Assembly (NCBI GenBank): GCA_035326105.1
Contig: DAOKYO010000001.1
Span: 395,805 to 459,804, forward strand
Length of the DNA: 64,000 bases
From: Bacilli bacterium
GTDB taxonomy: Bacteria > Bacillota_I > Bacilli_A > RFN20 > CAG-826
Direction of reading: 5' to 3'
Shown one piece after another: positions 3,149 through 18,451 of this stretch (its first letter is position 1; every line of letters begins with the position of its first letter). The translations under genes were made by a program, and so were the position numbers. Below the pieces are notes generated by a model that was not told where the DNA came from, made no database searches, and saw nothing but the letters and a program-made list of their open reading frames with translations.

Positions 3149-5399
3149 ATTCATTAAAGCACTTCCGATATATCCTAAAAAGTACATTCACGAAATGAAT
3201 ATGACTTTTTTCTTTGTAAGCGAGATCGAGACTTCGGGTGCCGGTATTTTAAGAGTAACAGGCAATAGTATCTATCGCGTGTTTGATAACGGAAAAATGA
3301 TTGGCTATGGTCCGGCAAGAGCCGCTCACGAGTATTATCGAATCGATGAATTTGCGCTTTCTTTAACTTCCCATCACCGAATTGTTATTGAACTGGTTGG
3401 GTATAATTGCAATTCCTATTATTGCTTAAATACCGAGCCTTTTTTGCAGGCAGAGGCTGAAGAAAATGGCCATATTATTACCTATACAGGCGACAGTAAA
3501 TTTGAATGTTTTCGTAATTTATCCCGCATTCAGAAGGTTGTGCGATTTTCTTTTCAGAGAACGTTTTCTGAATCATATAACTTTATCGAAAATCCGGATT
3601 TGTTTTTGCTTAAAAAGACAGAAGATTACCCCCCGGTGGCCTTCGATATTTTAACTAACAAAAAGTACTTACCGCGAAATGTCGCTTTTCCTATCTTTAG
3701 TGATGAATGTTTTGTATTAAAAGAAGTCGGTCGTTTTATCATTGATAAGACCAAACGGAAATATCATGATCGTTACATGGATTTGGATTTTCTAAAAATA
3801 TTTCCTCCTAATCAGTGGGAAGTCAATCCCAACGATTTCATATCCTCTTTACGCTTTAAAAAAGCAGAAATTGAAACCTTAAAAGCGGGAACTTTTTGTA
3901 CCTATCAGCTAGAAAATTCCAAGACAGGCTTTCTTGATTTTGAACTTGATTGTCGACAAGAATGCGATATTTACTTTGTTTTTGATGAAATTGATCAAGA
4001 TTCGGATGGGAATTTAATCGATATATCTTTTTTTAGAAACACAACCCATAACATCGTCTCATACCATATGCAATCCGGGCATTATCATCATATGACTATG
4101 GAACCTTATACAATGAAGTACTTGCGATTGATTGTTGGAAAAGGAGAAGTAAGTGTTTCAAGCATTAATTTAGTTAAATATGAGAACACTTCAATAAAGG
4201 CCAAATTATCATTTAGCGATGAGAAAATAGCGACTATTAGCAAAGCGGCAACGGCGACTTTTGCTCAAAATGCGGTCGATATTTTAATGGATTGCCCGTC
4301 CCGTGAACGAGCTGGCTGGCTTTTTGATTCATTCTTCACTTCGATGGCGGAAAATATATTAACCGGCAATAATCAAGTCGAGCGAAACTTTCTGGAAAAT
4401 TATGCGCTTCTTAAGCAATATCCTTCCCTGCCTCAAGGTATGATACCCATGTGCTACCCGGGAGAATTTCCAGATGGGGTTTTTATTCCCAATTGGTCTT
4501 TGTTTTATATTTTGGAGTTAGCCAAGTATCTTCAATATACGGGGGATGAAAAACTGGTTAAAGCATCATTAGATAACGTTGAACATTTACTGGAGTATTT
4601 TCAAAGGCTTGAAAATGAATTAGGCCTTTTAGAAAATCTGCAAGGATGGATATTTGTTGAGTGGTCCAAGGCTAATGATGATGATTTTGTCTCTGGGGTT
4701 AACTTTCCGTCAAATATGCTTTATGCCTCCGCGCTGGAAGCGGCCTCAATTCTACTAAAGCGTCCTTCGCTATCAATCAAAGCACAAACGATAAAAGAGG
4801 CAATTAATAAATATAGTTTTGATGGGCAGTTTTACCAAGATAATCTTTTGCGGGATAAAACCAATAAACTGGTTAAAACCGGTCACATCAGTGAAACCTG
4901 CCAATACTATGCCTTTTACTTTAAGGTAGCGACCCAAGAAAGTCGCCCGCAATTATTTAAGCTTTTATTGGAAAAATTTGGTCCCAAAAGGGATGATAAA
5001 ACCATTTATCCGCAAGTATATAAATCCAATGTTTTAATTGGTGACTATTTACGTCTTTTTATTCTTCTTGATTATTCCTACCTTTTTCAAGTCGAAGATG
5101 AAACTATCAATTATTTTTATCGAATGGCGGATCTTACCGGAACCATATGGGAACACGATTCGCCGACAGCAAGTTTAAACCACGGACTTACAAGTTGCTT
5201 GTTGAATATTCTCTTAGAAGCATATTTGGGAATCAAAGAAATCAATCACCACGGACATTATTTAGTTATGCGCTCAAAAGCCCTTCCTAAAAATGCAGCG
5301 TATGAAATTGACACGTCATACGGACCAATTACAATTTCAAACAATCACGGAAAGATAAGTATTATAAAGCCGGATATATATCAGATAATCTATGAGTAG
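3138..5399 (+). CDS. GH78 family alpha-L-rhamnosidase-like glycoside hydrolase
   Basis: 753-aa ORF containing DCPSRERAGWLFDSFF, matching the DCPxRERxGWxGD signature of the bacterial alpha-L-rhamnosidase (alpha/alpha)6 domain; N-terminal beta-sandwich region. Confidence 0.6.
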   Translation: MSDRFIKALPIYPKKYIHEMNMTFFFVSEIETSGAGILRVTGNSIYRVFDNGKMIGYGPARAAHEYYRIDEFALSLTSHHRIVIELVGYNCNSYYCLNTEPFLQAEAEENGHIITYTGDSKFECFRNLSRIQKVVRFSFQRTFSESYNFIENPDLFLLKKTEDYPPVAFDILTNKKYLPRNVAFPIFSDECFVLKEVGRFIIDKTKRKYHDRYMDLDFLKIFPPNQWEVNPNDFISSLRFKKAEIETLKAGTFCTYQLENSKTGFLDFELDCRQECDIYFVFDEIDQDSDGNLIDISFFRNTTHNIVSYHMQSGHYHHMTMEPYTMKYLRLIVGKGEVSVSSINLVKYENTSIKAKLSFSDEKIATISKAATATFAQNAVDILMDCPSRERAGWLFDSFFTSMAENILTGNNQVERNFLENYALLKQYPSLPQGMIPMCYPGEFPDGVFIPNWSLFYILELAKYLQYTGDEKLVKASLDNVEHLLEYFQRLENELGLLENLQGWIFVEWSKANDDDFVSGVNFPSNMLYASALEAASILLKRPSLSIKAQTIKEAINKYSFDGQFYQDNLLRDKTNKLVKTGHISETCQYYAFYFKVATQESRPQLFKLLLEKFGPKRDDKTIYPQVYKSNVLIGDYLRLFILLDYSYLFQVEDETINYFYRMADLTGTIWEHDSPTASLNHGLTSCLLNILLEAYLGIKEINHHGHYLVMRSKALPKNAAYEIDTSYGPITISNNHGKISIIKPDIYQIIYE

Positions 5400-5579
5400 A
5401 TGTTTTTAAGATAAAAAAGACGATTTTTTGAAGTATTCCTAAAAACTTTTTTTGACGATTTATAAAAATAAAACTTATTTCGATGAGAACTGGATTTTTA
5501 AGTAATCAGCACCCATTAATTTCGACAAGGGCAAAAAGAAAGCGCTTTTCTTTTCCATTACTTAATTTTTAGTTAAGTG

Positions 5580-5607
5580 TTGACAACGCTTACATTGGTG
5601 TTAATAT
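5580..5607 (+). promoter_or_regulatory. Sigma70-type promoter TTGACA-16nt-TAATAT upstream of the GntR gene and operon
   Basis: TTGACA at 5580-5585, TAATAT at 5602-5607, 16-nt spacer. Confidence 0.5.
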
Positions 5608-5611
5608 TTAT

Positions 5612-5631
5612 GTGGTTATGATGTTATAACC
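5612..5631 (+). promoter_or_regulatory. Inverted repeat TGGTTAT-N6-ATAACCA, candidate GntR/HutC operator
   Basis: Perfect 7-bp inverted arms immediately downstream of the -10 box and upstream of the GntR start codon. Confidence 0.4.
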
Positions 5632-5650
5632 AGTTAAACGGAGAGCACTT

Positions 5651-6382
5651 ATGGAAGATTTTTTAGCCCCTAAGTATTACTTATTAAAAAAGGAAATTGT
5701 TCATCAAATTGACAACGAAGTTTTTAAAGACGGCGAATTAATTCCCAGCGAGCGCGAATTGGTCCAAAAGTATGGTGTCTCGCGTATTACCGTTCGTCGG
5801 GCCATCGATGAATTGGTCAGTGAAGGTTACCTATATCGCGTTCAAGGCAAGGGTACCTTTGTTAAAAGTAATTTACTTGAGCAAAACATAATAACCCTTA
5901 ATAGCATTACGCAAGACATTATTGCGATGAATAAGAAACCGCGCCGTATTGTCAATCGTGTGGAAATTGCTCCTTCGTTTCCGAAGCGAACAAAAGAGTT
6001 AGAGATAAATCCTAATGACAAGTTAATCATTATCGATCGTTTGTATTTAGGTGATGATGAACCGGTTACTCGAACAATATCCTATATTCCGTATAAATAT
6101 TTTCCGGGATTAGAAAAGTATGATTTTGTCAAAAATTCCTTATTTGAAGTCCTTGAGAAAGATTATGGAGTAAAGATTACCCGTGGTCTAAGAACAATTG
6201 AAGCAATAAATCCGCCTGAAGGCGTGGCCGAGATGCTTCAAATTAAAAAACAACCAGTGATTCTATTTAGAGGAACAACCTATGCCTTAGTTAATGGCAA
6301 AGAAGTGCCAATTGAATCATTTAAATCTTATTATCGGTCTGACAATCGGCGATTCTCAATTAGCCAAGTAAAAATTGGCTGA
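5651..6382 (+). CDS. GntR family transcriptional regulator, HutC subfamily (HTH plus UTRA effector domain)
   Basis: N-terminal SERELVQKYGVSRITVRRAIDELVSEGYLYRVQGKGTFV is a GntR winged helix; the C-terminal ~150 aa are UTRA-like. Confidence 0.85.
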   Translation: MEDFLAPKYYLLKKEIVHQIDNEVFKDGELIPSERELVQKYGVSRITVRRAIDELVSEGYLYRVQGKGTFVKSNLLEQNIITLNSITQDIIAMNKKPRRIVNRVEIAPSFPKRTKELEINPNDKLIIIDRLYLGDDEPVTRTISYIPYKYFPGLEKYDFVKNSLFEVLEKDYGVKITRGLRTIEAINPPEGVAEMLQIKKQPVILFRGTTYALVNGKEVPIESFKSYYRSDNRRFSISQVKIG

Positions 6383-6417
6383 AACATATACACTGTTTCA
6401 TCACGAAAGGAGAAAGT

Positions 6418-7569
6418 ATGAAAAAAAAGTGGATGTTGTCGATGTCGATGTTGTTGCCGTTGATGCTTGCCGGATGTGGAGGTGGCAATTCATCTACTAA
6501 AGTGGGGTTAATTGTATCCGCGGCGGGAGCCAATGATAACGGGTACAATCAGTCGGCGATTGCGGGTTTGACTAAGGCGGCGAGTGATTTCAATATCTCG
6601 CAAAAAGTTGTTAACAGTGCCGATGACGTGCCGGGTTCATTGGAAGCTTTGGCTGAAGATGGTTATAAACTTATCTTCTCCCTCGAGTACAATTTCGATG
6701 CCTTAATTACCAATGATGGTTCGGGCAAATCAATTGCGGAGAAGTATCCGGATACGACTTTCGTCGTCTTCAATGCTTTCGCTAATACGGATAGCACGGG
6801 AGTTCGGGTTCATGACAACGTAGTTGAAGTGTTGTTTAACATTGCCCAGTCATCATTCTTAGCCGGAGCACTGGCGGTTATGGTCAATGAGGCGAACGAT
6901 GTCTTATTTACCTCGGATGATTACCATTTTACCCCAGTAAATCAATATCGGGGTGTAGGTTTCATCGGCGGAACGCAATCAGATGGAATTACCGTCTTCG
7001 GCAATGGATTTGCCCAAGGCGCCAACTACGCCGCCCAAGACGCCGATGTGAATTACAATCTATATCAAACATATAGTGCCGGATTTGGGGCTTCAACGGA
7101 AAACTACAATACTATTGCCTCCTATTATGACGCCGGTGTCAATGTCGTGTTTGCGGCGGCAGGTGGCGTTTCAACAAATATGAAAAATGCCGCTAGTAAT
7201 AAGGGAAAACTTTCAATTGATGTTGATGCCAATCAAGACGCCTCCGTTCCTGGATATGTTTTAACCAGCGTGCTTAAAAACACCGAAGTAGCAGTCTATG
7301 ACTTAGTCGGAAAATTCTTGGACAATAAACTCACCGAGAAAGATTATTACTATGATCTTGACAGCGGAGCGACCGGGATTACCGATTTAGCCACGATTTC
7401 CAGTTATATTGATACGTCAGAAACGGCACAAGCCAAATGGACGGAGATTAAAGACAAAATTGAAGATATTAAAGATGATATCGCCGACGGAACGATTACG
7501 GTTGTCGATTCTCAAAAAGGTGAGACATTGGATTTTTCAACTTTGCATAATATTACGAAAGCCAACTAG
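6418..7569 (+). CDS. BMP family (PnrA/Med-like) ABC transporter substrate-binding lipoprotein, nucleoside-binding type
   Basis: Signal peptide plus lipobox LMLAGCGG; ~380 aa; followed by a tandem-ATPase ABC subunit and two permeases, the typical bmpA-nupABC layout; RBS AAGGAG. Confidence 0.8.
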   Translation: MKKKWMLSMSMLLPLMLAGCGGGNSSTKVGLIVSAAGANDNGYNQSAIAGLTKAASDFNISQKVVNSADDVPGSLEALAEDGYKLIFSLEYNFDALITNDGSGKSIAEKYPDTTFVVFNAFANTDSTGVRVHDNVVEVLFNIAQSSFLAGALAVMVNEANDVLFTSDDYHFTPVNQYRGVGFIGGTQSDGITVFGNGFAQGANYAAQDADVNYNLYQTYSAGFGASTENYNTIASYYDAGVNVVFAAAGGVSTNMKNAASNKGKLSIDVDANQDASVPGYVLTSVLKNTEVAVYDLVGKFLDNKLTEKDYYYDLDSGATGITDLATISSYIDTSETAQAKWTEIKDKIEDIKDDIADGTITVVDSQKGETLDFSTLHNITKAN

Positions 7570-7600
7570 TCGTTAAAATTTTTAAGGAAGTTATATTAAC

Positions 7601-9190
7601 ATGGATATCATCAAGACGATAAATTTAACCAAAGAATTCGGTCCCCTCGTAGCTAACGATCACATTAATCTCACCGTTAAGGATAATGAGGTTAAGGCAA
7701 TTGTCGGTGAAAATGGGGCCGGAAAATCCACGTTAATGAACATGCTTTATGGTTTGATTAAGCCGACGAGCGGAGAGATTTATGTCGAAAACGAACTAGT
7801 CACTCTCCGCTCGCCAAATGATGCCATTAGTCGCGGAATCGGGATGGTGCACCAACATTTTAAGTTGGTGCCCAGCCTGACCGTTTTTGAAAATATTCTT
7901 TTAGGAGTCGAAATTAATAAAGAAGTGACAGTTGGTAAAAAGAGAATTCGATTACCGGGTATTAATCGTCACAAGGAACTTGAAGTTGTAAAAAATCTCA
8001 TCGATAAGTATGAGTTAAATATAAATCCGGATGAAGAGGTCAAGAAACTTTCCATCGGAGCCAAACAAAAAGTCGAAATTTTAAAGATGCTTTATCGGCA
8101 AGTTAAAATTCTAATTTTTGATGAACCAACGGCGGTTTTAACTCCGCAGGAAATACTTGTTTTTTACACGATGCTCAGAAACTTAAAAGCCAAAGGGACC
8201 ACAATTATCTTGATTACCCATAAGTTGCAGGAAGTAATCGACATTTCCGATTCAGTCACAGTGATTAAAAAAGGAAAAGTGGTTGCAAATTTAGCCACTA
8301 AAGATACGACGAAAAAACAATTAGCTCAACTGATGGTGGGGCGCGATGTCCTTTTAAACGTCAGCAAGACCTATGCGGATTATCAAAAGCAAGAATCGGT
8401 TTATCGATTGGAACATGTATCGACAATTAATCGCAGCGGAGTGGAAGTGGTATCCGATGTTAGCCTAAATCTCCATCGGGGCGAAATTGTCGGCATAGCC
8501 GGGGTTGAAGGAAATGGACAGAGTGAACTCTTGGATCTAATGAGTGGACTTTTGCAATCAACCCAAGGAAAAATCTTTCTTCATAATCAAGATATTACCA
8601 ACGTCCTGCCGGAAAAATTAAGAAAAAAACACATGGCCTTTATTCCCGAAGATCGTTACGAACAGGGTTTATGCCGTGATATGACGATCTGTGACAACAT
8701 GATTGCCGGCTATCACGATAGCGATGATATTTGCCATATGGGTTTTATCTCGGCAAAAAAGAAAATGGATAAAGCCGAACATTTAGCTTCAAAATATGAC
8801 ATTCGCCTTAATTCATTAAAAGACAATATTTCTTCTCTTTCCGGCGGTAATGCGCAAAAAGTAATTATTGCGCGAGAATTTGCTTCCGATCCGGATATTT
8901 TGATTGCCGCTCAACCGACAAGAGGCGTGGATATCGGAGCGATTGAGTACATTCATAAGAGTCTGCTTGATCTACAAAATCACGGGAAATCAATCCTTTT
9001 GGTTTCAAGCGAACTATCGGAAATAATGTCATTGAGCGATCGGATATTAGTCATGTACAAAGGACGAATTATCGGCCAGTTGGATGCAAAGAATGCCTCC
9101 CGAGAAGAAGTTGGGTATTTGATGATGGGAATTATTGATAGTAAAGAAGGAGGTAGCGAGCATGAAGGTCAAAATGTTATCGATGAGTAA
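7601..9190 (+). CDS. ABC transporter ATP-binding protein with two tandem ATPase cassettes (nucleoside/sugar type)
   Basis: Two Walker A motifs (GENGAGKST and GVEGNGQSE), two LSxGxxQK signatures, and FDEPT and IAAQPT Walker B regions; 529 aa. Confidence 0.85.
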   Translation: MDIIKTINLTKEFGPLVANDHINLTVKDNEVKAIVGENGAGKSTLMNMLYGLIKPTSGEIYVENELVTLRSPNDAISRGIGMVHQHFKLVPSLTVFENILLGVEINKEVTVGKKRIRLPGINRHKELEVVKNLIDKYELNINPDEEVKKLSIGAKQKVEILKMLYRQVKILIFDEPTAVLTPQEILVFYTMLRNLKAKGTTIILITHKLQEVIDISDSVTVIKKGKVVANLATKDTTKKQLAQLMVGRDVLLNVSKTYADYQKQESVYRLEHVSTINRSGVEVVSDVSLNLHRGEIVGIAGVEGNGQSELLDLMSGLLQSTQGKIFLHNQDITNVLPEKLRKKHMAFIPEDRYEQGLCRDMTICDNMIAGYHDSDDICHMGFISAKKKMDKAEHLASKYDIRLNSLKDNISSLSGGNAQKVIIAREFASDPDILIAAQPTRGVDIGAIEYIHKSLLDLQNHGKSILLVSSELSEIMSLSDRILVMYKGRIIGQLDAKNASREEVGYLMMGIIDSKEGGSEHEGQNVIDE

Positions 9191-10274
9191 AGAGAAATGG
9201 ACTAAGCTCGGATATGGGACTTTAAACGCTATTATCCCGATTATTATCGCTTTCCTTTTAGGAGCAGTGGCCATTTTGTTAGCTCAAGAAAATCCGTTGT
9301 TGGCCTATGGTACCATTTTCTATCGTTCGTTTTTAAAGTGGGACGGATTCTTAAAAACTCTTCACTATGCGGCGCCATTGATTTTATCGGGCTTGGCAAT
9401 TGCCTTTAGTTTTAAGGCCGGTCTATTCAATATGGGAATTGAAGGGCAAATTATATCAGCCGGCTTTGTCGTGGCTATTTTTGGCAACAAGCTGGCTTTT
9501 CTTCCTCCGATAATTCTCATTCCTTTATTGCTTATTATCGGAACCATTACAGGGGTAATAATGGCCATCATTCCCGCCATTTTAAAAGCGAAGTACAACG
9601 TTAATGAAATGGTTGTTACTTTACTCTTAAATTATGCGATTGCATTAATTCTTGAATATCTTACCTCAAATATTTTCCGTGACCCCGGAAGCGGATATGT
9701 TTCCACACCAATGATTGGCAACAATGCAATATTCACCCGTATCGGTGATAGCAAGCTAACTGTTTTCTTCTTTATCGTCCTGGCAGTATTTGTTCTGTTT
9801 TACTTTATTATGAATCACAGCAAGTTGGGATTTGAGATAACTGCCTTAGGAAAAAACAGAAGTTTCGCTGAAGCCACTGGCATGAATATTCAAAAGAAAA
9901 TCATCGTCATTATGCTGACCAGCGGAGCATTGGCGGGTTTGGCGGGGGCGGGCTGGATGATGTCGGAAAAATTCTCCTATACTTTATCTTTTTCCGGAAC
10001 GGCAGGCTTAGGCTGGGAAGGAATGCTTATTGCCCTTTTAGGAAATCATAGCCCGTTGGGGATATTGGTGGCGGCGATATTTTACTCCGTATTAAAAACG
10101 GGTTCTTCCAGCGTAGCCATATTTACAAACGTTCCCTCGGAAATTGTCTTGCTCATTCAAGCTTTGATTGTTTTGATGCTTTCGCTTAAAACCTTTGTCA
10201 AACCGCGCGTAAACACAAAGGAAACCCACTTTAAAAAAGAAAAGGTCAGAGACGAAAGAAAGGCGGAAAAGTAA
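9162..10274 (+). CDS. ABC transporter permease (BMP/nucleoside system, first permease)
   Basis: Multi-TM hydrophobic protein. Start moved to ATG 9162 (MKVKM...), which is preceded by GAAGGAGG; the ORF-track start 9135 overlaps the ATPase gene. Confidence 0.75.
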   Translation: MKVKMLSMSKEKWTKLGYGTLNAIIPIIIAFLLGAVAILLAQENPLLAYGTIFYRSFLKWDGFLKTLHYAAPLILSGLAIAFSFKAGLFNMGIEGQIISAGFVVAIFGNKLAFLPPIILIPLLLIIGTITGVIMAIIPAILKAKYNVNEMVVTLLLNYAIALILEYLTSNIFRDPGSGYVSTPMIGNNAIFTRIGDSKLTVFFFIVLAVFVLFYFIMNHSKLGFEITALGKNRSFAEATGMNIQKKIIVIMLTSGALAGLAGAGWMMSEKFSYTLSFSGTAGLGWEGMLIALLGNHSPLGILVAAIFYSVLKTGSSSVAIFTNVPSEIVLLIQALIVLMLSLKTFVKPRVNTKETHFKKEKVRDERKAEK

Positions 10275-10275
10275 C

Positions 10276-11193
10276 ATGGATTTTATAATTAAAATTTTGT
10301 TTGATTCGCTATATTTTAGTGGACCGATTATCCTTATTGCTCTCGGAGGCCTTTTTGCTTATAAAGCCGGTATCGTAAATATCGGTTTGGATGGTTTTAT
10401 GCTTTTTGGAGCACTAGCTTCAACCTTAATTCTTTACTTTACGAAGAGTTGGGCTTTAGCCTTACTTGGCGGTATTGTAATCGGCATTTTGCTGGGAGTA
10501 TTATTCTCCTTCTTCGGAGTAACGAAAAAAGCAAATTTTATTATCACCGGTTTTGCAATCGGTCTGTTATCGACCGCCGCCGGCAAATACGCTCTAGCGC
10601 TTATGCACGACACCTCAATCAATGTCATTGGCATTCTATCGACGGGGGCCAGTCGATTAAATATTCCGCTAATCGAAGATATTCCTTTTATTGGCCCAAT
10701 TATCTCAGGCCATACTTATCTCACATATTTCGCCTATATCAGTATCTTCCTTGTCGGCTTCATTATGAAGAAAACAAAGTTTGGAACTTATGTTCGTGTG
10801 GTAGGTGAATCGGAGGAAGCCGCACGGTCAGTCGGAATCAACATTAACCGCATAAAGTACTTAGCGGTCATTATCGGCGGAATTTTTACCGCTCTAGCCG
10901 GGTATGAAGTAGCTATTGTGCAACTGTCGTCGTACACAACGGATATTACCGCCGGTATGGGCTTCATCGCTTTAGCGGCGATATATTGTGGTGACGGTGA
11001 CCCGGGAAAGGTTTCGATATATGCAATTCTATTTGGAGTTGCGCAGGCACTATCGGTCAATCTTGCTATTCGAATCGGCAGTATTGCGGGGTTATTGAAA
11101 ATCATTCCTTATATCACTATCGTCATCGTGCTCTTCGTTGTTGCCTTAATTAAAAATCGGAAAAGCTTATATCGGGGGTTTATTTATGAATAA
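10276..11193 (+). CDS. ABC transporter permease (BMP/nucleoside system, second permease)
   Basis: 305-aa polytopic membrane protein immediately after the first permease. Confidence 0.75.
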   Translation: MDFIIKILFDSLYFSGPIILIALGGLFAYKAGIVNIGLDGFMLFGALASTLILYFTKSWALALLGGIVIGILLGVLFSFFGVTKKANFIITGFAIGLLSTAAGKYALALMHDTSINVIGILSTGASRLNIPLIEDIPFIGPIISGHTYLTYFAYISIFLVGFIMKKTKFGTYVRVVGESEEAARSVGININRIKYLAVIIGGIFTALAGYEVAIVQLSSYTTDITAGMGFIALAAIYCGDGDPGKVSIYAILFGVAQALSVNLAIRIGSIAGLLKIIPYITIVIVLFVVALIKNRKSLYRGFIYE

Positions 11194-11752
11194 GAAGTAT
11201 GCGCTAATTGTGGTTGATATGGTATACGATTTTACTAATCCCAATGGTAAAATCTTCTATCCCTTAAATGTCGACTTATTGCCTAAAATTAAGGATTTCA
11301 TTGCCGAAGTCAGAAAATATGGGGTTCAAATCATTTATATGCAACACTCAGTAACAAAGAGAATGCTTGAAGAGTCTCCGAAGAAAACGAGAGAATGTTG
11401 CTTGGTCGGTACCAAGGGTGAACAGATTGACGAGCGTTTAGAAATCCGACCCGAGGATTTGGTAATTAAAAAACATAAGTACAGTTCATTTTTTGAGACC
11501 GGGCTTGATCAAGAATTAAAGAGTCGCGGAATTGACCATATTATCGTTGCGGGAACAAAAACGAACAACTGTGTTTTTGCTACAGTTTTAGATGCGTATA
11601 ATCTCAACTATCACGCGTTTGTTCCAAAAGAATTAGTAGGCACTACCGATTATGAAACTAATGGCGTATACCTTCGGGATATGGGCAAATACCTATGTGA
11701 AGTAATGAGTGACCGGGAGATTATTGCTCATCTTCAGGAAGGGATACTATGA
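11186..11752 (+). CDS. Isochorismatase-family cysteine hydrolase (nicotinamidase/PncA-like)
   Basis: ALIVVDMVYDF (catalytic Asp region), conserved Lys, and IVAGTKTNNCVFAT (G-x-x-T-x-x-C-V nucleophile motif). Confidence 0.7.
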   Translation: MNKKYALIVVDMVYDFTNPNGKIFYPLNVDLLPKIKDFIAEVRKYGVQIIYMQHSVTKRMLEESPKKTRECCLVGTKGEQIDERLEIRPEDLVIKKHKYSSFFETGLDQELKSRGIDHIIVAGTKTNNCVFATVLDAYNLNYHAFVPKELVGTTDYETNGVYLRDMGKYLCEVMSDREIIAHLQEGIL

Positions 11753-12702
11753 AAAAATACGATGTCATCATCAGTGGATATATTGCTTTTGATCGGGTGA
11801 TTAAAATTGCCAGTCTCGCTAAAATCGGCAAAACTTCAATCATCACCAATAATGATAATAATGTTATCGAGTTTGGCGGTTGCGGAATTAACGTGGCCGT
11901 TGATCTGGCGACGCTTGGCTATAAAACACTCCCGGTTATCCGTGTGGGCGATGACTATGAAAGCAGTGGTTTTGCTTATTTTGTTAAAAATCACCGCTTA
12001 AGCGAAGCTGCCATTAAAAAAGTAACCGGTGTAAATTGCAGTTCCTGTTATTTGGTTGAAAACCCAAGTATGGATCACATCACGCTATATTATCCGGGTT
12101 CGATGGATGAAAAGTACTTTCTTAGTTACGATGAAGATTGGTTTAAGGAAAGCAAATTCGCCCTTATGACAGTAGCCAGCCGAAAGGATAATGAAGCATT
12201 TCTCGCGCTGACAGGCAAATACCATTTACCCACCTATTTTGGGATGAAAATGGATAAAACGGCTTTTCCTCCAGCCTTTCTTCGCAAAGTTTTAAAACGA
12301 GTCAGCGGTGTTTTTGCTAATAAGGTAGAAATCACTTATATTAAGCAAATTCTTCATATCGAACATACCAATCAAATGTTTTCTTTTAATAGCAATTTGC
12401 AATTTGTTGTTGTCACTAATGGTAAAAAAGGAAGCACTATTTATTATCGTAACGACAATAAGATTGAAAAAGCTACGATTGGAATTGTCCCGGCGGATGA
12501 ATTTGTCTCTACGGTTGGTTCGGGCGACGCTTATATGGCAGGCTTTATTTATGGATTAATCAAAGAGAAGGATTACTTACAATCGGCGAAGCTTGGGGCC
12601 ACATTGGCGACTTGTATTATTGAGGGGGTCGGAGCTACAAGCTCGGCTCCAGATGAAAAGCAATTGTGGGAACGGTATTATCGTTTCTTTGGAAAGGAAT
12701 AA
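11749..12702 (+). CDS. PfkB-family carbohydrate/nucleoside kinase (ribokinase-like)
   Basis: C-terminal GSGDAYMAGFIYGL matches the PfkB DTxGAGD anion-hole motif; the start is translationally coupled to the preceding gene. Confidence 0.75.
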   Translation: MKKYDVIISGYIAFDRVIKIASLAKIGKTSIITNNDNNVIEFGGCGINVAVDLATLGYKTLPVIRVGDDYESSGFAYFVKNHRLSEAAIKKVTGVNCSSCYLVENPSMDHITLYYPGSMDEKYFLSYDEDWFKESKFALMTVASRKDNEAFLALTGKYHLPTYFGMKMDKTAFPPAFLRKVLKRVSGVFANKVEITYIKQILHIEHTNQMFSFNSNLQFVVVTNGKKGSTIYYRNDNKIEKATIGIVPADEFVSTVGSGDAYMAGFIYGLIKEKDYLQSAKLGATLATCIIEGVGATSSAPDEKQLWERYYRFFGKE

Positions 12703-12705
12703 ATT

Positions 12706-13470
12706 ATGCAACCGACACTCTATTTAAAAGTTACCGACCAAAGTGTAGCTCCATATGTGATTTTTTCCGGCGATCCCTGGCGGGTGGAAGTCCTAAAAAG
12801 TTACCTTGACAATCCTCAAAGCGTTGGTTTTTATCGGGAATTCAATACTTATACCGGCACCTATAAAGGCTTGCCCATCACGATTACTTCCACCGGAATT
12901 GGCGCGCCTTCGGCCGTAATTGCCCTCGAAGAAATGTTCGATGCCGGGATGAAAGTGGCTTTACGAATGGGAACAGCAATGTCGCTGAGTAAAGCGGATT
13001 TGGGAAATTACATTATTCCCGCTTCTTCGAAAAGATTAGAGAAAACAAGCCTTACCTATGTTGATGAAAATTATCCGGCGAAAGCCGATCCAAAGTTTCT
13101 TCAGTCCATCATCAAAACCGTAACAAGCGCAGGGCAAAAAGTCATCACTGGCGAAAGTGCGACCATGGATGGATATTATTCGCAAATGAAGGAATCTCGA
13201 CTTTCAAAAATACGGCGAGTGGACATTGAAAGGAACTTTACGCAGTTAGAACAAGAAGGCATTATCTCGGTCGACATGGAAACATCTGCACTGATGGTAG
13301 TTGCCTCGCTTATGAAAGTGCCGTTTGCCTCATTGACCTTAGTCACAGTTTTGAAAAATCTCGCCGCCTTATTGGATGAAAAAACACGGAGGCGAAAAGA
13401 AGATGAACTTTGTCGGTTGGCGCTAGATTCGATGGTTAATTTTGTGAAGGAGGAAAAAATAAATGAATGA
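12706..13470 (+). CDS. Nucleoside phosphorylase, PNP/UDP family 1 (DeoD/Udp-like)
   Basis: FSGDPWRVEVL...YTGTYKGLPITITSTGIGAPSAVIALEEM and VDMETSAL align with DeoD/Udp core motifs. Confidence 0.75.
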   Translation: MQPTLYLKVTDQSVAPYVIFSGDPWRVEVLKSYLDNPQSVGFYREFNTYTGTYKGLPITITSTGIGAPSAVIALEEMFDAGMKVALRMGTAMSLSKADLGNYIIPASSKRLEKTSLTYVDENYPAKADPKFLQSIIKTVTSAGQKVITGESATMDGYYSQMKESRLSKIRRVDIERNFTQLEQEGIISVDMETSALMVVASLMKVPFASLTLVTVLKNLAALLDEKTRRRKEDELCRLALDSMVNFVKEEKINE

Positions 13471-14248
13471 TTTTTTTAAGAAATATCCAAAGACGATAAT
13501 TGGTATGGTCCATTGTTTGCCTTTGCCAGGGACAGCCCGTTATTCCGATTTAAATCAAGTGCGTAAACAGGCTTTAGCCGATGCACTTACGCTTCAAAAA
13601 GCGGGTTATGATGCGATTATGATTGAAAATATGGGCGACGCTCCATATGCCGAAAAAATGGATTTAGCCCAAATCACAGCGATGAGTGCAATCGCCGAGA
13701 TGATAAAAGAGGCGGTTGATCTTCCTTTAGGAATTGATTGTGCTTTCAGTGATTATCGCAGTGCTTTAGCCATTGCTAAGGCAGTCGGAGCAGATTTCAT
13801 TCGCATTCCCGTTTTTATCGATACGGTGGTCTACGCTAATGGCATTATCTATCCTTCGGCGCACGATGCCTTAATTTATCGGCGGGAAATTGACGCTGAA
13901 AAAGTGCTGATTATGGCTGACCTACAGGTTAAGCACACCCATATGCTCGTTAATGATATGAGTATTGAAGAATCGGCTAAACTAGCAGAAGCAAGCGGAG
14001 CCGATGCCGTAGTTGTAACGGGTGTTTTGACGGGTAAGCCAACTTCAATTGAAGATATTGAGCAGGTCAAAAAAGCCGTTACGGTTCCAGTTTATGTTGG
14101 CTCGGGTGTGAGTGTTAAAAACATTAAAGATCAATTGAGTATTGCCAGTGGCGTTATCGTTGGCAGTTCTCTAAAAGACAAAGGCAAAGTTAGTTTACCG
14201 GTTGATTTCGATTTAGCCAAAGAGCTAATTGAAGCATATAAGAAATAG
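13463..14248 (+). CDS. BtpA/SgcQ family TIM-barrel protein (function unknown)
   Basis: N-terminal KTIIGMVHCLPLPGTARYS matches the BtpA/SgcQ family signature. Confidence 0.55.
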   Translation: MNDFFKKYPKTIIGMVHCLPLPGTARYSDLNQVRKQALADALTLQKAGYDAIMIENMGDAPYAEKMDLAQITAMSAIAEMIKEAVDLPLGIDCAFSDYRSALAIAKAVGADFIRIPVFIDTVVYANGIIYPSAHDALIYRREIDAEKVLIMADLQVKHTHMLVNDMSIEESAKLAEASGADAVVVTGVLTGKPTSIEDIEQVKKAVTVPVYVGSGVSVKNIKDQLSIASGVIVGSSLKDKGKVSLPVDFDLAKELIEAYKK

Positions 14249-14260
14249 GAGGAGAAGAAT

Positions 14261-14992
14261 ATGCGTTTAATTTGTTTTCTTAATCATGGCTCGCCTTCAA
14301 TTGAAGCCAGCCATCGCGTCGTCGATTGTTATGTTGAGGGTGGAGCGGATGTAGTCGAGACGGATTTTCCAGCAGATGATCCCTATCTTGACGGAGACAA
14401 CATCAAAATTCGGATGCATGAAGCATTAACAAAATGCCACGATTATGACAAATACATGAAGTCGGTAGAGACCATTTTGAAGGAGCATCCAGGAATTCAT
14501 CTTTATATGTTGATTTATGAAGAAACGATTATGGCAATTGGTATGGAGAAATTTCTGGCTTTCTTAAGAAGAAATAATTTACAGGAAGTGTTGCTGGTTG
14601 GAGCGCGGCATCCGGAAGTTCGGGCTCGGCTTTTAAAAGAAAAATTAAAAGTCAGTGCCTACATCGAATACCATTTGCCCGAAGATGAGATTGAAACAGC
14701 CAAGCAAACAACGGGGTTTGTTTACCTGCAGGCGACACCATCTGGCAAATTCCATTCTCAATATAAAGATCTTAAGTCAATTATCAAGTACCTGCGCGAA
14801 GAACGGGGTATTTCCAATGAAATCAACTGCGGTATCGGAATTCATGACTATGATCAAGTTAGAATGGTTCGTGACGCCGGAGCGGATGGAGTGTTTATCG
14901 GCACGCAGGTTATGAACCTGCATGGACAACCGGAAAAGCTTATTGCCAAGGTCAAAGAACTAAAGGCAATCGCCAGCGGTCAAGTAAAGTAG
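14261..14992 (+). CDS. Tryptophan synthase alpha-subunit (TrpA) homolog, stand-alone paralog in a nucleoside operon
   Basis: Alignable with E. coli TrpA across the barrel: GGADVVETDFPADDPYLDGDNIK vs [23 protein letters not shown], with catalytic Glu and Asp equivalents conserved; CGIGIHDYDQVRMVRDAGADGVFIG vs [24 protein letters not shown]. No trpB adjacent. Confidence 0.6.
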   Translation: MRLICFLNHGSPSIEASHRVVDCYVEGGADVVETDFPADDPYLDGDNIKIRMHEALTKCHDYDKYMKSVETILKEHPGIHLYMLIYEETIMAIGMEKFLAFLRRNNLQEVLLVGARHPEVRARLLKEKLKVSAYIEYHLPEDEIETAKQTTGFVYLQATPSGKFHSQYKDLKSIIKYLREERGISNEINCGIGIHDYDQVRMVRDAGADGVFIGTQVMNLHGQPEKLIAKVKELKAIASGQVK

Positions 14993-15001
14993 TTCCCCCA
15001 A

Positions 15002-15033
15002 ATAGACACAGTTCCCCATGTGTCTATTTTTTT
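15002..15033 (+). terminator. Rho-independent terminator (ATAGACACA-8nt loop-TGTGTCTAT plus U-tract)
   Basis: Perfect 9-bp stem followed by TTTTTTT directly after the stop of 14261..14992. Confidence 0.7.
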
Positions 15034-16795: not shown

Positions 16796-18451
16796 ATGAG
16801 AATTGTTATTATTGGTGCGGTGGCAGGGGGGACCTCGGCCGCGGCAAAAGCCAGAAGAGAAAACGAAACTGCCGATATTGTGGTGTATGAGAAAGATCAA
16901 CACATTTCCTATGCGGGATGCGGGATGCCGTATTATCTTGGAAAACAAGTTGCCGAGGAAGAGGAATTAGCTCCGCGCGATGCCGATTACTTTAAAAAGA
17001 AGTACAACATTGATATTTATACCGAACATGAAGTCATTGATTTGGACGTAGAAAAAAAGGAAGTTATGATTATCGATCTTAAGACAAAAGCTACTTTTGC
17101 CGAACACTACGATAAATTAATTATTGCGACCGGAGCTCGGTCTTCTGTACCACCGATTAAGGGACGTGAACACGCTAATGTTTTTACCTTAAGAACGATA
17201 AAAGATATGGAAAACATTGAAGCGTTTATCGACAATAAATCCCCAAAGACAGCCGCGATTATTGGAACCGGCTTCATTGGCTTAGAGGTGGCGGAAAATT
17301 TAACCCGTCTTGGTATTAAAGTTACTTTGATTGAAAAGATGCCGCAGGTTTCACCATCGTTAGACAGCGACATGGCGATCCTTGTTCAAGATGAATTAAC
17401 GAAAAACGGAGTACGGGTTCTCGTCAATCAAAACATTCAAGAAATAACCGATAATGGAGTTGTTTTAGAAGGTGATGAATTTATAAATGGGGATTTAGTT
17501 TTAATCGCAACCGGTGTTCGGCCGAATGTAGATTTAGCCCGCAGTTCCGGAATTGAAATAGGGGTGACCGGAGCGATTGCCGTTAATGATAGAATGGAAA
17601 CCAGTGTGACGGATATATATGCGGTCGGTGATTGTATGGAAGAGTATCACGCTCTTACCGGAAAGCCGGTTTATCGGCCGATGGGATCAACGGCTAATAA
17701 GACGGGACGTATCGCCGGTAATAATGCTGCTGGTGGGCCAGTACTGACTTTTAAAGGAGTGATTGGAACAGCGATATATAAAGTTTTTAACCTAGCGGTC
17801 GCCCAGACCGGTTTAACTGAAAAAGAACTTATTAAAGAAAACATACCCTATCAAGTAAGTTTTAATATTAAACCGGAGAAACCAGAGTATTTGGGCGGTC
17901 AAGAAATGGTTATGAAAGTTATTGCTCGCAAGGATAATTTGCAGATTTTAGGAGCGGAAATTATTGGAACTTCGGGAGTTGACAAGAGAATCGACGTTTT
18001 AGCCACAGCGATTTCTTTTAAAGCCACGGCAAGCGATTTGGCAGCTCTGGATTTAGCCTATGCTCCTCCCTTTTCAACGGCCAAGGATCCGATTATATAT
18101 AGCGGAATGATTCTTGAGAACTCCATTTTATATGGACGTAAACAAATGACGGCTCACGAGGTCGATAATTTATCGCAAAACAGCTCGTCAGACGTTGTGA
18201 TTCTCGATAATCGCCGTCCAGAATTATTCCGTGCGGGGCATATTCCAGGGGCAATCAATGTCGCGCAGGAAGATATGAGAGACTATCTTCAAAATCTGGA
18301 TAAAAAAGCCACAATCCTTACCTATTGCTCCAAAGGAGTGACGGCCAACGCCACTCAAAACATTCTTATTAATCACGGATTTGAAAACGTGTATAGTCTA
18401 AATGGCGGATATTCCACTTTTGCGAATTACCAAAGAATTAACAAAAAGTAG
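16796..18451 (+). CDS. CoA-disulfide reductase / NADH oxidase family flavoprotein fused to a C-terminal rhodanese domain (CoADR-RHD type)
   Basis: N-terminal GAVAGG FAD motif, redox Cys in SYAGCGMPY, second NAD(P) GxGxxG (GTGFIG); C-terminal ~100-aa rhodanese with YCSKGVTANA active-site loop. Confidence 0.8.
   Translation: MRIVIIGAVAGGTSAAAKARRENETADIVVYEKDQHISYAGCGMPYYLGKQVAEEEELAPRDADYFKKKYNIDIYTEHEVIDLDVEKKEVMIIDLKTKATFAEHYDKLIIATGARSSVPPIKGREHANVFTLRTIKDMENIEAFIDNKSPKTAAIIGTGFIGLEVAENLTRLGIKVTLIEKMPQVSPSLDSDMAILVQDELTKNGVRVLVNQNIQEITDNGVVLEGDEFINGDLVLIATGVRPNVDLARSSGIEIGVTGAIAVNDRMETSVTDIYAVGDCMEEYHALTGKPVYRPMGSTANKTGRIAGNNAAGGPVLTFKGVIGTAIYKVFNLAVAQTGLTEKELIKENIPYQVSFNIKPEKPEYLGGQEMVMKVIARKDNLQILGAEIIGTSGVDKRIDVLATAISFKATASDLAALDLAYAPPFSTAKDPIIYSGMILENSILYGRKQMTAHEVDNLSQNSSSDVVILDNRRPELFRAGHIPGAINVAQEDMRDYLQNLDKKATILTYCSKGVTANATQNILINHGFENVYSLNGGYSTFANYQRINKK

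Follow-up and report, generated by a model that had tools for sequence, protein, structure and literature searches.

Which compound is taken up and broken down by an operon that joins a nucleoside-type importer to enzymes from outside the classical nucleoside pathways? This question is raised by a 64,000-nucleotide stretch of DNA from a Bacilli bacterium (contig DAOKYO010000001.1; hereafter the window, in which all positions are counted unless another locus is named). Ten genes on the + strand, at 5651-14992, were called there from the list of open reading frames (ORFs) and from Pfam and NCBIfam profiles. They encode a GntR/HutC-family regulator and nine further proteins: an ATP-binding cassette (ABC) importer with its binding protein, a Cys hydrolase of the isochorismatase family, a PfkB-family kinase, a nucleoside phosphorylase, a BtpA/SgcQ-family barrel (BtpA) and a divergent paralog of the tryptophan synthase alpha subunit TrpA, here called TrpAL.

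The reading that we favour, at somewhat less than an even chance, is that a ribonucleoside-like compound would be taken up and its sugar part fermented under the control of the GntR/HutC repressor, and that the operon would parallel, in bacteria and with non-homologous enzymes, the haloarchaeal non-carboxylating pentose bisphosphate pathway. Parts of this reading stand on firmer ground. A single repressible operon with a predicted riboside importer, a phosphorylase and a furanose kinase is strongly supported by the sequences, and so is the inheritance of these genes as a block (the cassette) in more than 100 species. In the literature searched (full text, with most subscription journals outside its coverage) we found nothing on the cassette, on the function of BtpA/SgcQ or on a catabolic TrpA paralog, which agrees with the uncharacterised route proposed in a first-pass annotation of this DNA. 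What appears to be new is the pairing, in one operon, of nucleoside uptake and catabolism with downstream enzymes that are non-homologous.

A single regulated operon

A sigma-70-type promoter was recognised at 5580-5607 (+ strand; TTGACA, 16 nt, TAATAT, with an extended -10 TG) by consensus match only, at 10 of 12 positions. It is followed at 5613-5632 by the predicted operator of the GntR/HutC regulator, the inverted repeat TGGTTAT-N6-ATAACCA, whose core at 5615-5630 reads GTTATGATGTTATAAC. The ten genes follow with junctions of -8 to +35 nt, and a hairpin resembling an intrinsic terminator (15000-15029, + strand; 11 bp stem, then TTTTTAT) lies 8 nt past the last stop codon. No Rfam family matched in the operon region, so that a riboswitch or other leader RNA was dropped from consideration. 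With one promoter, one operator and one terminator, and a gene order kept across species, a single transcription unit is strongly supported, as the first-pass annotation had proposed. All the genes that it named were found where it had placed them, but its count of nine has to be raised to ten (the regulator plus nine).

The regulator gene (5651-6382, +) encodes an N-terminal GntR winged helix-turn-helix (Pfam GntR, 1.4e-18) and a C-terminal UTRA domain (6e-27). Together with a palindromic operator between the -10 element and the start codon, these are features of the GntR family and its HutC subfamily, and the protein is a probable repressor of the operon. Its orthologue lies inside the cassettes of other species, at the head or at the tail (3' end). 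Our first operator model, TGGT...ACCA, was dropped because it was not conserved outside the window's species, and was replaced by the 16-nt family motif GTYATRAY-NN-YATRAY (degenerate search pattern GTYATRAYNNYATRAY). Palindromes listed upstream of the first cassette gene gave GTCATGAC-GA-CATGAC and variants. The motif matched the 64 kb window once, at 5615-5630, with 0.08 matches expected. In 24 fetched loci it always lay 30-100 nt 5' of the first cassette gene, and no copy away from the cassette was found in 1.5 Mb of related loci. The GntR/HutC operator that had been proposed for this promoter is supported by this distribution, which shows the predicted regulator-operator pair to travel with the cassette.

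A cassette shared by more than 100 species

TrpAL, the most distinctive gene of the cassette, was used as its marker. A word-indexed search of 5.8 billion proteins gave only 22 TrpAL clusters at E < 1e-55, followed by a gap to true TrpA at about 1e-14, and an exhaustive profile search of 1.84 billion representatives gave 70 clusters at E <= 1e-30 before the TrpA continuum began. A pattern scan with one genome per species placed the cassette in at least 111 species. We kept 80 loci, and their gene order was read from tblastn searches with the ten window proteins against all loci and from gene calls. The best match was the metagenome-assembled genome (MAG) 'Bacilli bacterium UW_MP_BACIL2_1', with 95-100% amino-acid identity across all ten proteins.

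The carriers belong to the Clostridia, Bacilli, Izemoplasmatales, Actinomycetota and Spirochaetota. Among the Clostridia we found Coprococcus comes, Blautia, Robinsoniella, Lactonifactor, Lachnoanaerobaculum orale and Oribacterium parvum, as well as Ruminiclostridium hungatei, R. cellobioparum, Faecalispora, Caproiciproducens and Clostridium lundense. The Bacilli were represented by Peribacillus loiseleuriae and Sporolactobacillus, and the remaining carriers were Candidatus Izimoplasma and other Mycoplasmatota, Propionicimonas and Olsenella (Actinomycetota) and a Spirochaetaceae MAG. The order GntR-Bmp-ABC-perm-perm-Isoch-PfkB-PNP-BtpA-FeADH-TrpAL was found in essentially all complete loci, about 70 from four to five phyla, with unrelated flanks, and such identity of order in other species is far beyond chance. 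The gene families whose co-occurrence the first-pass annotation had proposed to check do recur as a block, but the window holds a reduced variant of what is elsewhere an 11-gene cassette.

The eleventh gene encodes an iron-containing alcohol dehydrogenase (Fe-ADH, AdhE-like) and lies between the BtpA and TrpAL genes in 79 related loci. It was absent only from the window, from the near-identical MAG (L007) and from one sister species (L008), and no homologue was found anywhere in the 64 kb window. Since it is present in all the nearest relatives, the simplest account of its absence is that the window's clade lost it. Where present, Fe-ADH always adjoins TrpAL. It is nearest to the alcohol dehydrogenase domain of AdhE and to lactaldehyde reductase (FucO), a similarity that suggests a short-chain aldehyde reductase. 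One 630-aa protein from the Joint Genome Institute (JGI) collection (P0224) joins Fe-ADH in frame to TrpAL (junction ...YKVPEKR / LKLVCYSSLGYP...), and this joining may be genuine or may come from a frameshift in sequencing.

Compared with the other orthologues, the window's clade differs at 20 of 71 near-invariant positions of the hydrolase, at 14 of 60 in TrpAL and at 2 of 77 in the binding protein. Part of this divergence is a signature of a wider Bacilli/Mollicutes clade, being present also in loci that carry Fe-ADH. We rejected the idea that the loss of Fe-ADH co-varies with the changes in the hydrolase: an Arg-poor hydrolase occurs also in three Mollicutes-like loci with Fe-ADH (L002, L006 and L009), and the changes are a clade effect.

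Some loci depart from the common plan. In Lachnospiraceae bacterium JLR.KK009 (CP143549.1; L061, 2619-10708) the cassette has neither permease 2 nor the hydrolase or kinase, its phosphorylase match is partial, and it looks like a decayed copy. In Tenericutes bacterium ADurb.Bin239 (L084, 11127-17000) the cassette is immediately followed, on its downstream side, by a second, more distant phosphorylase and a BMP-type ABC importer. In 15 loci, mostly of Lachnospiraceae and Oscillospiraceae (for example L012, 10711-11190, and also L036, L051, L054 and L064), the gene next after TrpAL belongs to the VOC/glyoxalase superfamily (PF00903; about 150 aa), hinting at a reactive carbonyl. In L034 a VOC gene (418-858) stands instead ahead of the Bmp gene and downstream of the operator, so that the operator motif precedes an extra gene heading the operon.

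The importer

The second gene (6418-7569, +) encodes a substrate-binding lipoprotein of the BMP/PnrA family with the lipobox LAGC (Pfam Bmp, 2.7e-33, 115.7 bits). It shows the marks of this family, namely the Bmp fold, a lipoprotein signal, two stacking aromatics and Asn, Asp and Lys residues around the ligand. Its nearest solved relatives were BMP-family nucleoside receptors, the closest being 7X0R, 'Lbp' (7e-21). Residues Y43, F/Y194 (the stacking aromatics), N44, D40, D270, D274 and K287 were invariant in 68 orthologues, and Y43, F/Y194 and N44 align with the stacking and Asn residues of BmpD and PnrA, where the ligand is sandwiched between two Phe (PMC7093131). The kept set thus covers contacts to the ribose as well as stacking on the nucleoside. 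However, the Asp that reads the purine edge (PnrA D27, BmpD D19) is Ser34 in the window and Ser in 62 of the 68 orthologues. From these residues, the ligand is likely a planar-base riboside other than a standard purine.

The remaining importer genes encode an ABC ATPase with two nucleotide-binding domains (7601-9190, +; Pfam ABC_tran twice, 8.4e-56) and two permeases (9135-10274, +, Pfam BPD_transp_2, 8.3e-34; and 10276-11193, +, 5.6e-27). The nearest NCBIfam models of the ATPase were sugar and BMP-type ABC ATPases, none of them above its cut-off. The TTG at 9135 is a mechanical ORF start that makes permease 1 379 aa long, compared with 356-367 aa in the orthologues; its true start is probably an ATG near 9183, so that the gene would overlap the stop of the ATPase, as it does in the orthologues. 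A BMP-type, nucleoside-like importer next to an enzyme set outside the classical deo, rbs and psu pathways, as described in the first-pass annotation, is thus what we found.

Phosphorylase, kinase and Cys hydrolase

No operon protein reached an NCBIfam equivalog cut-off, and BtpA alone passed a subfamily model (TIGR00259). The phosphorylase (12706-13470, +; Pfam PNP_UDP_1, 3.9e-30) is of the hexameric (NP-I) type, and its nearest structures were uridine phosphorylases, at about 1e-25. The phosphate residues R26, R44, R87 and T90 and the ribose residues M191 and E192 were invariant in 77 orthologues, so that the phosphate and ribose set of E. coli Udp (Arg30, Arg48 and Arg91 with Thr94; Met197 and Glu198) is retained. 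Udp His8, which contacts the 5'-hydroxyl, is replaced by an invariant Tyr. The uracil residues Gln166, Arg168 and Arg223 are not kept: position 160 is Gln in 44 of 77 orthologues, position 162 is His, Arg or Lys, and position 217 (Udp Arg223), aligned to DeoD's catalytic Asp204, is occupied by Glu in 67 of 77 and by Lys in the window. Arg228, aligning with DeoD Arg217, is invariant. The uridine phosphorylase model TIGR01718 scored 138 bits against a cut-off of 280, and a plain uridine phosphorylase was ruled out because its uracil residues are not conserved. The earlier label 'PNP/Udp' accordingly holds for the fold but not for uracil binding. By its residues the enzyme is competent for a ribofuranoside, with a base pocket that is non-canonical and rather unconstrained; such variability fits an interest in the sugar and not in a particular base.

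The kinase (11749-12702, +; Pfam PfkB, 1e-28) belongs to the PfkB/ribokinase family. It carries the Asp that binds the cis-diol of a furanose (D15, invariant), the GG motif and the GxGD anion hole, and the fold and D15 appear to fit a furanose substrate. Its nearest solved structure was the M. jannaschii nucleoside kinase MJ0406 (1.6e-15). Among the NCBIfam models, those of ribokinase (67 bits), of nucleoside kinase and of the two archaeal ribose-1-phosphate kinases (45 and 43 bits, where the cut-offs are 330 and 500) gave scores that were weak and similar.

The Cys hydrolase (11186-11752, +; Pfam Isochorismatase, 1.5e-34) has the triad D11/K96/C129, invariant in 74 orthologues and aligned with D8/K96/C138 of Mycobacterium tuberculosis PncA. 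The metal site of that nicotinamidase (D49, H51, H57 and H71) is represented by Q53, H54, V56 and C71 in the window and by Q/R/K, H, Y/N and N in the family, which leaves one of the four ligands, the equivalent of H51. The NCBIfam PncA model gave 29 bits against a cut-off of 174, and the nearest solved structures were N-carbamoylsarcosine amidase, unassigned cysteine hydrolases and RutB. An assignment to the PncA-type nicotinamidases, and with it the nicotinamide riboside reading, was rejected over the missing metal ligands, so that the first-pass label 'nicotinamidase-like' and its hint at nicotinamide riboside are not supported. The majority form of the hydrolase carries an Arg cluster (R57, R97, R98, R112 and R131), which suggests an anionic substrate, and a Cys-Cys pair; both are missing in the window's clade.

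The two barrels

BtpA (13463-14248, +; Pfam BtpA, 1.8e-71) is a (beta/alpha)8 barrel of the BtpA/SgcQ family and scored 233.9 bits with TIGR00259, above the cut-off of 153.4. Its AlphaFold2 model was an eight-stranded barrel with a mean predicted local distance difference test score (pLDDT) of 93.5. Foldseek returned only generic phosphate-binding barrels at a template modelling (TM) score of about 0.6 (ThiE, HPS-PHI, TrpA, HisF, TrpF, RPE, NanE and PcrB, with TrpC too among the nearest folds); we found no solved structure of the BtpA family and none closer than TM about 0.6. The invariant residues were H17, D40, E55, N56, D59, D97, R114, D153, K157, H158, S214, G215, G234, S235 and K238, of which S214-G215 and G234-S235 form standard phosphate loops. 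An isomerase, an aldolase and a phosphatase are the candidate roles.

One cassette, in a Sporolactobacillus sp. MAG (L038, 8063-11607), is the only one without BtpA, and a Cof-type HAD phosphatase gene (PF08282) follows right after its TrpAL gene. The gene may replace BtpA non-orthologously, which would hint at a phosphatase role for BtpA; coincidence is the alternative.

TrpAL (14261-14992, +; Pfam Trp_syntA, 5.4e-25) passed the Pfam Trp_syntA threshold (88.3 against 27 bits). However, it fell below the cut-off of the trpA equivalog TIGR00262 (83.8 against 102.35 bits). Its public annotation is 'tryptophan synthase subunit alpha'. The first catalytic carboxylate of TrpA is invariant (E33 for TrpA Glu49), and the second, D44 (TrpA Asp60), is Glu in 73 and Asp in 10 orthologues. 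Both phosphate loops are retained (G191/G193 and G214-S/T215 for TrpA G211-G213 and G234-S235). The indole pocket, on the other hand, has turned polar (F22 to Y, L25 to N, G51 to D, A103 to E, I153 to Y and L177 to Q in TrpA numbering), the replacing residues being Y6, N9, D35, E87, Y134 and Q157 and the new invariants D35, R51, E87 and Q157. A pocket with D35, E87, R51, Q157 and several Tyr implies a polar, probably anionic substrate. No trpB or other trp gene was found beside TrpAL in the window or in the 80 loci. A genuine trpA was ruled out by the equivalog score, the missing trp neighbours and the changed indole pocket.

A sister TrpA-like family shares the NPYLDG and LQATPG motifs with TrpAL and was found in three copies at a galactitol-type phosphotransferase system (PTS) operon that also encodes a HAD hydrolase and a regulator of the SorC type. 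The operon, in JGI metagenome 3300048577 (L087, 5248-13533; also L088), encodes EIIC-GAT, IIB, IIA, a 337-aa protein of unknown family, a 281-aa TrpA-like protein, a HAD hydrolase, a 279-aa TrpA-like protein (P0027) and SorC, and a divergent GntR/UTRA gene and the third TrpA-like gene lie alongside it. TrpA-like barrels thus appear to have been recruited repeatedly into sugar-phosphate catabolism. The accessory clues (the VOC gene, the HAD gene of the Sporolactobacillus locus, the fusion and the PTS operons) place both barrels in sugar-phosphate metabolism. This role had also been suggested for the pair in the first-pass annotation, and it agrees with the kept phosphate loops, the Fe-ADH gene between the two elsewhere and the TrpA-like relatives in a PTS operon.

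A proposed route for the sugar

The scheme that we favour would start with the phosphorylase, which would set the base free and yield a pentose 1-phosphate. A second phosphate would be added by the PfkB kinase, or this enzyme would phosphorylate the nucleoside or ribose at C5. BtpA would then rearrange the pentose phosphate as an isomerase, or possibly act as a 1-phosphatase, and TrpAL, as a lyase, would cut the pentose phosphate to give a triose phosphate together with a C2 aldehyde. D35 and E87 of TrpAL, beside E33 and E/D44, could form a divalent-metal site; hexulose-phosphate synthase and 3-keto-L-gulonate-6-phosphate decarboxylase, which are related barrels, have such a site. In the other lineages Fe-ADH would reduce the aldehyde, most likely glycolaldehyde, and this would re-oxidise the NADH from triose phosphate oxidation, giving a redox-neutral route in which transketolase and transaldolase are not needed. 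In the window's clade, which has lost Fe-ADH, a housekeeping reductase would presumably take its place. The Cys hydrolase would contribute an obligatory hydrolytic step, by deamidating the released base or by hydrolysing an intermediate of the sugar branch.

Several points weigh against this scheme. The chemistry of TrpA depends on the indole enamine, and in both barrels an obvious Schiff-base lysine is missing from the usual strand and there is no evident metal site of the His type, so that an aldolase acting on a plain sugar phosphate is putative. The scheme needs a kinase besides the phosphorylase only if a bisphosphate is made or if the pair is an ATP-driven replacement for phosphopentomutase. 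The best similarity of Fe-ADH is to the acetaldehyde-reducing AdhE, which fits deoxyribose as well as ribose. The hydrolase is as strictly conserved as the other enzymes and has no necessary place in a sugar scheme. The Fe-ADH::TrpAL fusion is a singleton on one 4.8 kb contig, which we keep as weak Rosetta-stone evidence, and the locus with a HAD gene and no BtpA comes from a MAG and could mislead. The window's own version may also differ in chemistry, having no Fe-ADH and so many changed positions in TrpAL and the hydrolase (14 of 60 and 20 of 71). Without Fe-ADH, and with an altered TrpAL pocket and Lys217 in the phosphorylase, this variant may make a different by-product.

Other readings of the cassette

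The hydrolase is the starting point of the reading that comes nearest to ours, a dedicated route for one modified nucleoside bearing an amide or ureido group, which we consider unlikely, though not negligibly so. Deamidation of the base, nucleoside or nucleotide would be its defining step and the other enzymes would dispose of the ribose; it overlaps with the fermentation of the sugar and differs in setting the selective value on the base. Nicotinamide riboside, AICA-riboside, N6-threonylcarbamoyladenosine (t6A) and a ring-opened pyrimidine riboside are the candidates. Such a substrate would suit a strictly conserved hydrolase with an intact D-K-C triad, whose nearest solved relatives act on carbamoyl and ureido amides and whose Arg cluster, in the majority form, suggests an anionic amide. 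The change of the purine-edge Asp to Ser in 62 of 68 binding proteins and the DeoD-like Glu/Arg pair in place of the uracil residues of the phosphorylase point the same way. However, positions 160, 162 and 217 of the phosphorylase vary while the binding protein hardly changes, which is unexpected for one exotic base, and in a salvage centred on the base neither the two sugar-phosphate barrels nor the aldehyde reductase would be called for. Nicotinamide riboside in particular is disfavoured by the loss of three of the four PncA metal ligands.

If the sugar is the point, it could still be deoxyribose. A DNA-scavenging route in which the phosphorylase and kinase supply deoxyribose 5-phosphate and TrpAL, as a non-homologous analogue of DeoC, splits it into glyceraldehyde 3-phosphate and acetaldehyde, with Fe-ADH making ethanol, would explain why Fe-ADH most resembles the acetaldehyde-reducing domain of AdhE and why the cassette has no deoB or deoC. 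TrpA, like DeoC, releases glyceraldehyde 3-phosphate, and the cassette was found in Izemoplasmatales and Mycoplasmatota, which are reported degraders of DNA. We nevertheless judge this route improbable. Two invariant residues argue for ribose, namely E192, the phosphorylase Glu that binds the 2'- and 3'-hydroxyls, and D15, the kinase Asp for the cis-diol; the enolate of acetaldehyde could not be stabilised by a bidentate metal site, and TrpAL has no invariant Schiff-base lysine; BtpA and the hydrolase would be left without a role. The hydrolase does gain a place, next to TrpAL and Fe-ADH, if the chemistry of Trp and His biosynthesis is run catabolically on an N-ribosyl compound. The kinase would then supply the 5'-phosphate, BtpA would act like TrpF or HisA (ring opening or an Amadori rearrangement), and TrpAL would use the N-C=C enamine of the substrate to free glyceraldehyde 3-phosphate, leaving an N-substituted C2 aldehyde to be reduced by Fe-ADH and de-acylated by the hydrolase. 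This would agree with the retention in TrpAL of both catalytic carboxylates of TrpA, including the one that hydrogen-bonds the indole N-H (E33 invariant; D/E44), and with the TrpF, HisF, TrpC and TrpA folds among the nearest to BtpA. However, a phosphorylase with a fully intact phosphate site would have no role in it, and no such catabolic chemistry is known; as pure inference, it ranks as more improbable again than the deoxyribose route. Hardly any credence is left for a fortuitous neighbourhood of a nucleoside importer and unrelated enzymes, among them a genuine trpA, as the public annotation of the last gene as 'tryptophan synthase subunit alpha' would have it. It is effectively refuted by the spread of the cassette over so many species, by an order that stays identical in about 70 loci although the phyla and the flanks differ, and by the shared operator; overlapping junctions, the lack of an adjacent trpB and a score under the trpA equivalog cut-off speak against it as well.

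Flanking genes

The genes around the operon are unrelated to it, encoding a rhamnosidase-like glycosidase, a transglutaminase-like lipoprotein and a protein resembling CoA-disulfide reductase. Upstream, two consecutive ORFs of about 500 aa (88-1572 and 1646-3148) had no Pfam match at E <= 1e-5, and downstream of both lies a 753-aa protein with a rhamnosidase-type six-hairpin domain (3138-5399). The stretch that separates the gene upstream from the promoter of the operon holds an A/T-rich palindrome, AAAAAGAAAGCGCTTTTCTTTT, at 5533-5554, which may terminate the upstream unit. On the other side of the operon, the product of 16796-18451 fuses a pyridine-nucleotide-disulfide oxidoreductase to a C-terminal rhodanese domain, an architecture like that of CoA-disulfide reductase and persulfide reductase.

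Implications

The fullest form of our proposal is that the cassette encodes an undescribed bacterial C3 + C2 cleavage of the nucleoside pentose, bypassing both the pentose phosphate pathway and DeoB/DeoC. It would include a TrpA-derived lyase, the first activity of any BtpA/SgcQ protein and, for a Cys hydrolase of the isochorismatase fold, an unexpected role outside the amidases or as a novel amidase, and would be convergent with the haloarchaeal pathway and widespread in gut, oral and sediment anaerobes. We hold this form to be possible and rather doubtful, with somewhat less confidence than the uptake and fermentation of the sugar as such.

If it is true, many gut, oral and sediment anaerobes (among them Lachnospiraceae, Oscillospiraceae and Izemoplasmatales) ferment a nucleoside sugar by a route that is in no pathway database, and metabolic reconstructions of the carriers are wrong for a common nutrient from RNA turnover. 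A first biochemical handle would be gained on the BtpA/SgcQ family, which has had no known molecular function ever since its naming, and a TrpA barrel would have been recruited to catabolism. The mis-annotation as 'tryptophan synthase subunit alpha' makes microbiome studies predict too much tryptophan or indole capacity. Direct tests are within reach, given the conserved operator and the cultured carriers; the cassette is common in well-studied gut and oral genera, and two orphan enzyme groups become approachable through it.

Comparison with known systems

The importer is built like the BMP/PnrA importers of Treponema pallidum (PnrA/TmpC), Borrelia burgdorferi (BmpD/BmpA) and Streptococcus pneumoniae (PnrA), with a lipoprotein as substrate-binding protein, a double ATPase and two BPD_transp_2 permeases, and it shares their binding-protein fold, stacking aromatics and Asn. 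NupNOPQ of B. subtilis and RnsBACD of L. lactis are further nucleoside ABC importers of this type. However, the known systems serve salvage without a catabolic enzyme set, whereas the cassette importer is tied to one, its base-edge Asp is changed to Ser and its binding protein scores only 115 bits with Pfam Bmp. With classical deo, udp and rbs catabolism the cassette shares an NP-I phosphorylase and a kinase of the ribokinase fold as the entry of the pentose, but in place of DeoB, DeoC and RbsD it has BtpA, TrpAL and, elsewhere, Fe-ADH.

TrpAL has the fold and the Pfam family of TrpA and of the stand-alone indole-3-glycerol phosphate lyases (BX1), and it retains the phosphate loops and the catalytic carboxylates (Glu and Asp/Glu). 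At 24-29% identity to these, it has neither a TrpB partner nor a trp operon and sits in a catabolic operon instead. BtpA is of the same family as SgcQ and cyanobacterial BtpA, a family with no known reaction, so that membership gives no function. E. coli SgcQ is 27% identical to the cassette protein and does not have E55, D59, D153, K157 and H158; all five are invariant among the cassette proteins, so that the family probably covers more than one function. The E. coli K-12 gene (sgcQ, b4303; L089, 4112-4918) carries the RefSeq label 'putative nucleoside triphosphatase'. SgcQ likewise lies in a sugar-uptake (PTS) operon, where it adjoins a ribulose-phosphate epimerase homologue, and the PTS operon with the TrpA-like genes is reminiscent of this sgc operon.

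The dihydroxyacetone phosphate (DHAP) shunt and 5-deoxyribose disposal proceed by MtnP/MtnK-MtnA-Ald2 and by DrdK-DrdI-DrdA. Here too a pentose derived from a nucleoside passes through a phosphorylase or kinase, an isomerase and an aldolase to a triose phosphate and a small aldehyde for an alcohol dehydrogenase. The enzyme families are different, though, and the substrates are endogenous 5'-deoxy and 5'-methylthio sugars that cannot be phosphorylated at C5 and need no importer.

The closest parallel in logic is the haloarchaeal non-carboxylating pentose bisphosphate pathway, where guanosine phosphorylase, a PfkB ribose 1-phosphate kinase, ribose 1,5-bisphosphate isomerase, ribulose 1,5-bisphosphate phosphatase, an aldolase for ribulose 1-phosphate and a reductase for glycolaldehyde lead to DHAP and ethylene glycol (Sato et al., 2022, PMC9700705). 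Its six enzymes and those of the cassette, also six, correspond one-to-one in how many steps there are and of what kind. By family, however, the e2b2-type ribose 1,5-bisphosphate isomerase, the FucA-type class II aldolase and the HAD phosphatase have no counterpart in the cassette (a HAD protein occurs only in the Sporolactobacillus locus). The cassette has BtpA, a TrpA paralog and a Cys hydrolase instead, is bacterial and is linked to an ABC importer and a GntR regulator. By analogy, it may work like the haloarchaeal pathway, of which it is not a member.

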